This document shows positions 2,058-3,909 of a stretch of DNA of 4,254 nt, in pieces. The position numbers and the translations under genes were made by a program. Numbering within the stretch: position 1 is the stretch's first letter; each line of letters opens with the position of its first letter. The notes under the pieces were generated by a model. It did not search any database, was not told the DNA's origin, and saw only the letters and a program-made list of their open reading frames with translations. The DNA is from a virus (Duplodnaviria; Heunggongvirae; Uroviricota; Caudoviricetes): IMG/VR virus record IMGVR_UViG_2537561712_000020, one strand, 5' to 3'.

Positions 2058-2580
2058 ACGCCCCCCTGGCAGACATTTGTTTATCTGCAAAGTAATATTG
2101 GTATTGCTGACGATACGCGTGCTTGAAAGCAATAGCTTTTTCTATAAGCTCGTCAGTCTCACGTTCCACAACAACTGGATCCGCAAAAAGCAGCCCGGAC
2201 TCCACCACATCGCCATATTCTTTGTTTAACCCGGCGATCATGTACGTAATGCTTTTTCCGTCAGTAATTTCACAATACAATCTGAAATCGCTGATCCGGA
2301 TAGCCTCCATAATTGCCGGAATCAGCGCCGTGAATTTGTCACGCTTATCTCTGGTGTCGATAGCTTTCCAGCGTTCGAATATCTTCACCCGGTTAACGCC
2401 CAGCGCCCGTTGATCAACCTCGCCATCATTAAACGTGACGCGTTGAACATCGATGTTCGGGCGTTCTTTCAGAGCCCAGAATGCTTCCGTGATTAATATC
2501 GTCGCCTGCTCCTGTGTCATTCCTGGTCGGCATACCCAGGTATCCAGAGCCTCACAAACCTGTTCAGTGGTGATTTTCAT
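2029..2580 (-). CDS. YdaT-family protein (proposed CII-like regulator; earlier described as a prophage toxin)
   Basis: 182-codon ORF with ATG at 2580-2578. N-terminus MKITTEQVCEAL and the internal segment KFTALIPAIMEAI resemble Rac-prophage YdaT as I recall it. Lies immediately downstream of the Cro-like gene (17-nt overlap), the conserved ydaS-ydaT arrangement. Family assignment is from memory, not a search. Confidence 0.65.
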   Translation of the reverse strand: MKITTEQVCEALDTWVCRPGMTQEQATILITEAFWALKERPNIDVQRVTFNDGEVDQRALGVNRVKIFERWKAIDTRDKRDKFTALIPAIMEAIRISDFRLYCEITDGKSITYMIAGLNKEYGDVVESGLLFADPVVVERETDELIEKAIAFKHAYRQQYQYYFADKQMSARGAYEYRCTTMG

Positions 2581-2791
2581 TGTTCAACCGCCCCGCCCGC
2601 TTTGCCTTACGATATTCGTCATAAACTTTGGGGTCGTACTGAAGTTCCCCGCCGGATGCCTCTTGCAGGCGCATCGCGCGACCTTCAGGAACCAGTTCCC
2701 CCCATGCAGCAACGCTTGCCAGCCTAACTCCTGCGACATTGGCAAGCTTTGTTTTGCTGCCAAAAAACGCTATAGCATCAATTTTCAACAT
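2564..2791 (-). CDS. dicC: Cro-like HTH regulator of the DicC/YdaS family
   Basis: 75 aa; ATG at 2791-2789, AAGGG about 7 nt upstream. HTH-like segment GSKTKLANVAGVRLASVAAW. C-terminal half (LVPEGRAMRLQEASGGELQYDPKVYDEYRK...RLNNENH) matches my recollection of E. coli DicC. Divergent from the repressor gene across a 76-bp operator region. Confidence 0.8.
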   Translation of the reverse strand: MLKIDAIAFFGSKTKLANVAGVRLASVAAWGELVPEGRAMRLQEASGGELQYDPKVYDEYRKAKRAGRLNNENHH

Positions 2792-2867
2792 ATCGAAACC
2801 CTTAGATTTTCCTAAGGAAACTAGATCGTAGAGAAACCTAAGTCAAGAAAAATTAGAATTACCTAAT
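2792..2867. promoter_or_regulatory. Divergent control region with two operator-like palindromes (O1 2800-2817, O2 2852-2867) and back-to-back promoter candidates
   Basis: O1 is CCTTAG-ATTTTC-CTAAGG (perfect 6-bp arms). O2 is ATTAG-AATTAC-CTAAT. Minus-strand promoter candidate for the Cro-like gene: -35 TTGACT (plus 2841-2846), 17-bp spacer, -10 TAGTTT (plus 2818-2823), abutting O1. Plus-strand -10 candidate TAGAAT (2854-2859) lies inside O2 and ends 8 nt before the repressor ATG. Confidence 0.6.
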
Positions 2868-3275
2868 ATGAAAAACGAAACCTTCGGTGCTCGCCTCTTA
2901 TACAGGCGAAAAAAATTAAAACTGTCTCAGGCCGCATTAGGTAAGCTGGTCAAAGTGGCTCACGTAACAATTTCTCAATGGGAAAGAGATGAAACACAGC
3001 CAGCGGGGAAGAGATTATTCGCACTGAGCCAGGCGCTTCAGTGCTCGCCGACTTGGCTTCTTTTTGGAGATGAAGATAAGCAACCAGGCGAACCGATCCC
3101 AGATAATCAGCCAGTCAATCTGACAGAAGATCAAAAAGAGTTGCTTCAACTGTTCGACGCACTGCCTGAGTCAGAGCAAAAGGCTCTGTTGTCAGAGATG
3201 CGTGCTCGAGTTGAGAATTTCAACAAACTTTTTGAAGAACTACTCAAAGCTCGCAAAAGAAGCGCAAATAAATAA
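2868..3275 (+). CDS. dicA: DicA-like HTH (XRE-family) repressor; CI analogue with no S24 peptidase domain
   Basis: 135 aa. HTH segment LSQAALGKLVKVAHVTISQWERDE. Segments LFALSQALQCSPTWLLFGDEDKQP and ALPESEQKALLSEMRARVENFNKLFEELLKARKR match E. coli DicA as I remember it, including the 135-aa length. No Shine-Dalgarno sequence upstream of the ATG. Confidence 0.88.
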   Translation: MKNETFGARLLYRRKKLKLSQAALGKLVKVAHVTISQWERDETQPAGKRLFALSQALQCSPTWLLFGDEDKQPGEPIPDNQPVNLTEDQKELLQLFDALPESEQKALLSEMRARVENFNKLFEELLKARKRSANK

Positions 3276-3373
3276 CCCCCCTTTTTTTCGCAACTCTCTG
3301 TAATAAAAAGCACAAACTTTCAAATACTTGTGTTTTTTACATCAAGAAGCTTAGGTTTTTCTACACAAAAAGC

Positions 3374-3403
3374 TTGACCATAACTCTTAGGCTATTCTAA
3401 ATT
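3374..3403 (+). promoter_or_regulatory. Candidate rightward early promoter with embedded operator-like palindrome O3 (3386-3401)
   Basis: -35 TTGACC (3374-3379), 18-bp spacer, -10 TAAATT (3398-3403). O3 is CTTAG-GCTATT-CTAAA, the third copy of the TTAG-N6-CTAA core, sitting between the -35 and -10. Confidence 0.4.
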
Positions 3404-3616
3404 CTACTCATCAAGACACCGCACGGTGTTCTCAGCAAACAGTTCCGCTACCCGGCGTTAAGGGGAAGCAGAGGATTTCTCAGTGGGCGAGTCAAACATC
3501 AGAATGGAAGGCGTCCAGGGATCAGCAAAGAAACAGCGATGGCGCTTTATATTGATATCAGCGCCATTGCCGGACAGGTAAGAGTTATCAGAGCGGTAAC
3601 TAAGCGGTATGCGCCT

Positions 3617-3817
3617 TTACTTCAGAAAGTCTCTGGTGAGTGCACCGAAGATATTGTCAACGATTTCGTCATCGAACTGCGAGGACTCATCTTCAGTTAC
3701 AAGGTGACCACAATTTTTGCAGATGGCTCCCGCGAAACTGTCAGAGCCCTGCGGCTTAAAGGATGTGTCAAAGACTTCGCCACCACATTCTGGGCAAGAA
3801 AACTTGATTGTATTCAT
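3617..3817 (-). CDS. Small zinc-ribbon protein (CxxC-N21-CxxC) with acidic C-terminal tail; function unknown
   Basis: 66 aa from ATG 3817-3815: MNTIKFSCPECGGEVFDTSFKPQGSDSFAGAICKNCGHLVTEDESSQFDDEIVDNIFGALTRDFLK. GAGAGGAAA lies 8 nt upstream of this ATG; the TTG at 3823 used by the ORF track is too close to the SD. Codon usage is ordinary. The overlapping plus-strand 99-aa ORF (3539..3838) has no SD and 7 of its 8 Arg codons are AGA/CGG/CGA, so I treat that one as the antisense shadow. Confidence 0.6.
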   Translation of the reverse strand: MNTIKFSCPECGGEVFDTSFKPQGSDSFAGAICKNCGHLVTEDESSQFDDEIVDNIFGALTRDFLK

Positions 3818-3909
3818 AACCAATTTCCTCTCGAGTAACAGACCCCTCAGAGGATACCACCTCGCCTGACGTGGTTAAAAGCAGGCAACGCTAACCACAA
3901 GGAGCCGAC

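Follow-up and report, generated by a model that had tools for sequence, protein, structure and literature searches.

Background

The repressor gene dicA of the Qin prophage in E. coli K-12 has already been catalogued as leaderless, with a 3-nt leader (PMC4681348). Its start, 3 nt before the ATG, was identified by dRNA-seq and confirmed by RLM-RT-PCR (Romero et al.); this proximal start was the only one found by dRNA-seq. According to the same authors, three leaderless genes of K-12 encode prophage repressors: dicA (Qin), racR (Rac), and ymfK (e14). Later work counts dicA among the 'known leaderless genes'. PaaR2 has been described as leaderless on the evidence of 5' RACE and N-terminal sequencing; for RacR and YmfK the evidence is dRNA-seq.

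Regulation of the Qin immunity region has also been described. K-12 DicA represses dicC (PMC10448788; PMC3441716). Of the operators it bound Oc, whereas Om and Oa by themselves were not bound (Yun et al. 2012, PMC3441716), and activity of the dicA promoter required DicA, acting through Oc (PMC3441716; summarised in PMC10448788). The dicBp promoter is described as tightly repressed by DicA. Control of the DicA-type repressor in K-12 is by antirepressor; in Qin this is rem, which inactivates DicA (PMC10448788). At the O157:H7 locus itself, overexpression of DicC lowers dicA mRNA (PMC6915034).

A short-leader dicA is thus already known: the K-12 homologue is catalogued, and phage P22 has the same layout. 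The start site of the O157 gene is also already public, in Table S5 of PMC10469882, without comment in that paper.

Identity of the locus

The stretch of DNA analysed here (the window, 4254 nt) comes from a lambdoid prophage of E. coli O157:H7 and represents its immunity and replication region. Many O157:H7 chromosomes match positions 2560-3420 at 100%. The 'PPompW' prophages and Stx2a phages match the whole window at 97%, and the two central genes are annotated there as dicA and dicC. Strain EDL933 differs from positions 2500-3500 by a single base, at 2957, which is synonymous; positions 2780-2900 are identical. The ten primers that Pu et al. 2019 (PMC6915034) published for dicA/dicC of O157:H7 are all exact matches to the window, and the locus is thus the dicA/dicC of that study. 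The two central genes are as follows.

2868..3275, + strand: dicA-like repressor CDS (ORF, 135 aa; the O157 dicA primers of PMC6915034 match)
2564..2791, - strand: dicC-like Cro gene, 75 aa (Pfam P22_Cro at 3e-13; SD AAGGG, -4.9 kcal/mol)

The region has the composition of a Qin-like immunity module: a divergent Cro-like dicC, three operator-like sites between the genes, and a downstream, operator-bearing promoter directed toward ydfC/dicB. Both ydfC and dicB are found downstream in EC4115 and EDL933. A rem homologue is present in the same prophage, outside the window (EDL933 1854667-1854800, RS09645), which suggests that induction of the non-cleavable O157 repressor proceeds via an antirepressor. 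The O-like replication gene, which is on the opposite strand, contains direct repeats resembling iterons (variants of TTTGGGTGTCTTTG and GTTTTTGGGTGT) at 1575-1771. These repeats probably mark the replication origin of the prophage, as in lambda and P22.

The repressor and its start codon

As the dicA allele of the O157:H7 prophage, the 135-aa ORF encodes a repressor of the P22-C2 type lacking a self-cleavage domain. It is 63% identical to K-12 DicA over 131 aa (E=6e-62), and its N-terminus contains Pfam HTH_3 (4e-14). Its similarity to the N-terminal domain of P22 C2 (PDB) covers residues 2-69 (E=1e-21). No Peptidase_S24 was found in the Pfam scan of the ORF. It thus has all the features of a DicA-type repressor: about 135 aa, an N-terminal HTH_3 domain, no S24 domain, and homology to K-12 DicA. 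A LexA/cI-type self-cleaving repressor was considered and rejected, as the protein has only 135 aa and no S24 match; lambda cI and YmfK do show S24. BLASTP of the repressor against lambda cI gave no significant similarity, and the relatedness of these two proteins is argued from the common HTH_3 domain together with the P22 C2 match. In EDL933 the identical protein is encoded by EDL933_RS09600 (WP_000787428.1).

The ATG at 2868-2870 is the first start codon past an in-frame TAG at 2829-2831, and in alignments it coincides with the N-terminus of both K-12 DicA and P22 C2. The next in-frame candidate is a GTG at 2955, and its use would remove the first HTH helices. The ATG is confirmed as the true start, and the missing Shine-Dalgarno (SD) sequence before it is real rather than a mis-annotation. 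That no SD precedes this ATG had been stated from the sequence, and the energies agree: the best duplex of positions -25 to -1 with the 16S 3' end (anti-SD) is only -0.7 kcal/mol. At the starts of five other ORFs in the window the anti-SD duplexes are -4.9 to -7.9 kcal/mol, and composition shuffles average -1.8.

Transcription start site and leader

A Cappable-seq map of 5'-triphosphate ends is available for EDL933 in eight conditions (Zehentner et al. 2023, PMC10469882, Table S5). For EDL933_RS09600 a single gTSS is listed, at 1849474(-), in eight of eight conditions; the CDS starts at 1849472. The following features are defined by this position and by the sequence around it.

2854..2859, + strand: TAGAAT, the -10 of the dicA-like (PRM-like) promoter (highest PWM score for a -10 on the + strand; TSS 7 nt downstream)
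2866, + strand: transcription start site (A) (EDL933 gTSS 1849474(-) mapped onto the window)
2866..2867, + strand: 2-nt leader 'AU', without SD (Cappable-seq TSS and sequence)

The start is the seventh base after TAGAAT, and it is also the last A of an operator half-site, CTAA. The 5' end of the mRNA reads 5'-AU-AUG-AAA-AAC. The earlier note had predicted, from the position of the hexamer, a transcript beginning 0-2 nt before the ATG; the mapped start, 2 nt upstream in all eight conditions, bears this out. The same note had named a start inside the Cro-like gene as the result that would overturn it. Table S5 lists no such gTSS within 250 nt upstream in the eight conditions. The authors assigned gTSS purely by distance (up to 250 nt upstream of a gene), as can be seen from the dicC starts, which are listed also for the gene after dicC. 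A start in the Cro-like gene reading into dicA should thus have been listed. In these data, starts less than about 5 bp apart are clustered under the strongest position, and 2866 may therefore stand for a mix that includes some use of 2867 or 2868.

Leaderless mRNAs are defined in two ways. The operational definition (leaderless or short-leader) covers 5' UTRs under 5-10 nt, which includes the 2-nt leader found here. The strict definition, in which +1 is the A of the AUG, does not apply; the major mapped start is at -2. The data support an O157 dicA mRNA that is leaderless in essence, with a leader of 2 nt. The mapped start site is the decisive evidence.

The dicA promoter

The arrangement read from the sequence in the earlier note is correct: TAGAAT at 2854-2859, a gap of 8 nt (TACCTAAT, 2860-2867), and the ATG at 2868-2870. 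The hexamer was also called the only good -10. It is the best on the + strand (6.9 bits), but two others score as well: TAGATT at 2803-2808 (5.6 bits) and TAGCAT at 2773-2778 (4.4 bits), the latter with TTGTTT 18 nt upstream. The scores come from a rough -10/-35 PWM, with frequencies based on published compilations, and are indicative only. All three hexamers derive from TTAG-type sequence.

No recognisable -35 was found for TAGAAT: the sequence at 2831-2836 is GAGAAA, with three of six matches. There is no TG extension (extended -10), and a consensus promoter scan made no call at the site because of the missing -35. P_dicA is nevertheless active in vivo with GAGAAA at its -35 position, as the EDL933 Cappable-seq start demonstrates. 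Data from K-12 suggest, by analogy, that P_dicA may be activator-dependent.

Upstream regions were compared in 28 distinct variants from prophages of Escherichia, Citrobacter, Enterobacter, Pantoea, Erwinia, and Yersinia, with protein identities as low as 53%. In every one of the 28, TAGAAT or TAGCAT stands 8 or 9 nt before the ATG; since the hexamer is inside an operator, its conservation alone cannot tell promoter from operator. None of the 28 has an SD, the best duplexes ranging from 0.3 to -2.9 kcal/mol. In dinucleotide shuffles of the 76-nt intergenic region, 1.6-3.7% give an equally good hexamer 5-9 nt before the ATG.

Operators and regulation

Sites of the form TTAG-N6-CTAA, with one mismatch allowed, occur five times in the window; 1.24 would be expected by chance. 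Three of them are intergenic and two are at the downstream promoter. The intergenic sites, found by palindrome search, and the divergent promoter among them are listed here.

2853-2866: proximal operator-like palindrome TTAG-N6-CTAA, TTAGaattacCTAA ('Oa' equivalent; O2 in the earlier note)
2828-2841: middle operator-like site GTAG-N6-CTAA ('Om' equivalent)
2802-2815: distal operator-like palindrome TTAG-N6-CTAA ('Oc' equivalent)
2818..2847, - strand: divergent dicC promoter TTGACT (2847-2842)-N17-TAGTTT (2823-2818) (PWM 11.6, the best of the region)

The half-sites are ATTAG/CTAAT in the proximal site and CTTAG/CTAAG in the distal site; the downstream promoter has the latter form again. Measured from the dicA start, the proximal site covers -13 to +1, the middle site -38 to -25, and the distal site -64 to -51. 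Relative to the dicC start, the same sites cover -55 to -42, -30 to -17, and -4 to +10. The dicA start site thus sits within the proximal palindrome. The -35 of P_dicC (2842-2847) falls between the -35 and -10 positions of P_dicA. As the strong dicC promoter overlaps P_dicA in this way, RNA polymerase would not be able to occupy both at once.

If K-12 is a guide, DicA would silence P_dicC from the distal operator(s) and would thereby permit or activate P_dicA. DicC, and possibly also excess DicA, would turn off dicA from the proximal operator. The earlier note had proposed that the repressor regulates its own gene through the operator overlapping the -10. Excess DicA may repress dicA at this putative operator. 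The K-12 data point instead to positive autoregulation via the distal Oc, together with repression of dicA by the Cro-like DicC. The proximal site would then be mainly a DicC target, as Cro has OR3.

The dicC start and the downstream promoter

In the EDL933 Cappable-seq data, the dicC TSS is at 2811/2810 (-) of the window, which gives a leader of 20/19 nt and fits the TTGACT-N17-TAGTTT promoter. This start is seen in three of the eight conditions (exponential M9, exponential salt, and stationary salt), compared with eight of eight for the dicA-like start. Such a pattern is consistent with a stably repressed switch which is leaky in some conditions.

A further promoter lies downstream of the repressor gene.

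3351..3410, + strand: PL/dicBp-like promoter, TTGACC 3374-3379, N18, TAAATT 3398-3403, TSS 3410 (promoter scan and Cappable-seq)

The two operator-like sites here are at 3351-3364 and 3387-3400. The start at 3410 is seen in all eight EDL933 conditions, although the promoter bears these two sites. The leader of the PL-like transcript (window 3413-3468) is about 95% identical between O157 and K-12 Qin, whereas the promoter/operator region just upstream has diverged. It holds a hairpin, ACACCGCACGGTGT, and a CCC(C)-N8-GGGG stem; it could be an RNA element, nutL-like or of another kind. No part of the window had a match in an Rfam scan (E<=1). Further along, two ORFs on opposite strands overlap. 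The annotated one, 3539-3838 (+), encodes 99 aa and has no Pfam match; the unannotated one, 3617-3823 (-), encodes 68 aa with CxxC...CxxC motifs and weak matches to zinc ribbons. The TSS at 3410 shows that there is transcription of the + strand.

Translation initiation and alternative explanations

The 5' end of the dicA mRNA is open. The first 10 nt are unpaired in a 60-nt fold, and the 5' end is A-rich. Unfolding the first 20 nt takes 1.4 kcal/mol, compared with 5.6 +/- 3.5 for random 60-mers of the window. The mRNA thus has the features of the short-leader class: an AUG start codon, no SD, and an unstructured 5' end. With only two untranslated bases, the AUG would be recognised at or near the 5' end by the leaderless or short-leader pathway, and the unstructured, A-rich end would aid this recognition. 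In E. coli, a single added 5' nucleotide is already reported to inhibit leaderless initiation (cited through PMC8459731), and in Caulobacter reporters output falls about 2-fold per added A (PMC8459731; PMC9031893). Since short leaders lower leaderless initiation, translation of dicA is probably inefficient and would keep repressor output low. This would suit a repressor that is needed at a low level.

Three other explanations deserve to be weighed against this one. Most DicA could be made from a longer, leadered transcript, begun at TAGATT (2803-2808) or at TTGTTT-N18-TAGCAT (2773-2778) in or near the dicC-like gene. Both hexamers do score as -10-like and TAGCAT has a partial -35, but 2866 is the only TSS among the gTSS within 250 nt upstream in the eight conditions, and dRNA-seq of K-12 shows the proximal start only. 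The ATG of such a transcript would still be without an SD. We consider this explanation very improbable. Much the same can be said, with slightly more force still, of the idea that TAGAAT is a mere by-product of the operator half-site (TTAG...) and that nothing functional follows from its position near the ATG. The TAG-type -10-like hexamers of the region all coincide with TTAG-type sequence, the chance expectation of 1.6-3.7% is not negligible, and conservation of the hexamer is inseparable from that of the operator. Against this, a primary 5' end lies exactly 7 nt downstream of the hexamer in EDL933, and likewise at the homologous hexamer of K-12.

The third explanation accepts the 2-nt leader and concerns the ribosome. 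Ordinary 30S subunits could initiate on this mRNA independently of an SD, with the help of an A/U-rich, unstructured start and S1, rather than by the specialised 70S recognition of a 5'-terminal AUG, the mark of truly leaderless mRNAs such as lambda cI. The start region is indeed A-rich and unstructured, the mapped start is at -2 and not 0, and short leaders lower leaderless initiation. Ribosome profiling with kasugamycin points the same way: the 'leaderless' genes of K-12, among them dicA, showed no greater resistance than leadered genes, which calls a 70S-type mode in vivo into question. However, 2 nt cannot span the mRNA channel of the 30S subunit on the upstream side of the P site, a small share of transcripts may start at 2868 given the 5-bp clustering, and the conservation of 2-4-nt leaders in the DicA/P22 C2 lineage suggests that it matters how near the AUG is to the 5' end. 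We regard 30S initiation as somewhat unlikely, though it deserves serious consideration. A more speculative proposal, which we think has a rather small chance of being right, makes the leader a tuning device. In the P22-C2/DicA lineage the +1 would never fall on the AUG, and a 2-4-nt leader would be kept since the start is tied to the final A of the operator nearest the gene. Such a leader would reduce translation several-fold, and small shifts of the start over 2866-2868 (for example with nucleotide pools or operator occupancy) would alter translatability, adding a translational layer to the lysis-lysogeny switch.

The account that we prefer, and hold to be very probable as a whole, is that the O157 allele of dicA is transcribed in lysogeny from a weak sigma-70 promoter with a -10 and no -35, that transcription starts at 2866, that the mRNA is translated as a leaderless or short-leader message, and that operator control resembles that of K-12. 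Its importance beyond annotation is slight. The O157:H7 dicA allele joins the few leaderless or short-leader mRNAs listed for E. coli, nearly all of which encode prophage repressors. The 2-4-nt leaders of the DicA/P22 lineage are also a natural test case for the cost of a very short leader in E. coli.

Comparison with known systems

The K-12 dicA gene of Qin is a close counterpart. Its product is a homologous protein, also of 135 aa and also of the HTH_3 type. Both loci have a divergent Cro-like dicC, three operators of the TTAG-N6-CTAA type, and a downstream dicBp/PL-like promoter. In both, the proximal operator contains the -10, and transcription begins at the final A of its CTAA, the seventh nucleotide past the hexamer. 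The hexamer is TAGCAT in K-12 and TAGAAT here. The only geometric difference is found between the operator and the ATG, where K-12 has CT and the window has T; the leader is thus 3 nt (ACU) in K-12 but 2 nt (AU) in O157. The flanks of the operators differ, which indicates a different immunity specificity. Unlike K-12 Qin, the O157 prophage keeps replication genes downstream of dicC.

P22 is the closest characterised relative. The PRM start of c2 is annotated (GenBank) 4 nt before the ATG, inside OR3, compared with 2 nt in the window. The P22 sequence TAAGATgacTTAACT-ATG is nearly superimposable on TAGAATtacCTAAT-ATG of the window. The N-terminal DNA-binding domains of the two repressors are homologous, and in both cases the partner Cro belongs to the P22_Cro family. 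P22 C2, however, has 216 aa and a RecA-cleavable C-terminal domain, whereas the DicA-type protein has 135 aa and no such domain. The earlier note had seen in this locus a convergent solution in an unrelated repressor family. That view is not supported: the repressor is of the HTH_3 type, as is lambda cI, it matches P22 C2 at E=1e-21, and P22 PRM and K-12 dicA have the same layout. Since P22 shares the design, it is not a convergent invention. The leaders kept in the DicA/P22 C2 lineage are 2-4 nt and not 0 nt, which suggests that it is the closeness of the AUG to the 5' end that matters.

The resemblance to lambda cI and its promoter PRM is more general. In both systems a maintenance promoter diverges from the cro promoter, the operator is tripartite, and the repressor gene has no SD; the promoter-proximal operator overlaps the -10, and both repressors score as HTH_3. 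Lambda PRM has TAGATT, 6 nt, and the ATG, and it starts on the A of the ATG with a 0-nt leader, compared with 2 nt here. Lambda cI has an S24 domain and the O157 repressor does not. Operator centres are at -6.5, -31.5, and -57.5 from +1 in the window and at -19, -42, and -66 in lambda; they are thus about 10-12 bp, roughly one helical turn, closer. As a result the middle operator covers the -35 position of the repressor promoter, whereas its lambda counterpart abuts it. Given this position, activation from OR2 in the manner of lambda may not be applicable to the operators of the window.

Other prophage repressors at the cI position also have leaderless mRNAs, as dicA does here: PaaR2 (CP-933P, O157:H7), RacR (Rac), and YmfK/CohE (e14). 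In racR and ymfK a -10-like hexamer is found 6 nt before the ATG. These three repressors belong to other sequence families and have a 0-nt leader, whereas the leader of the O157 dicA allele is 2 nt.
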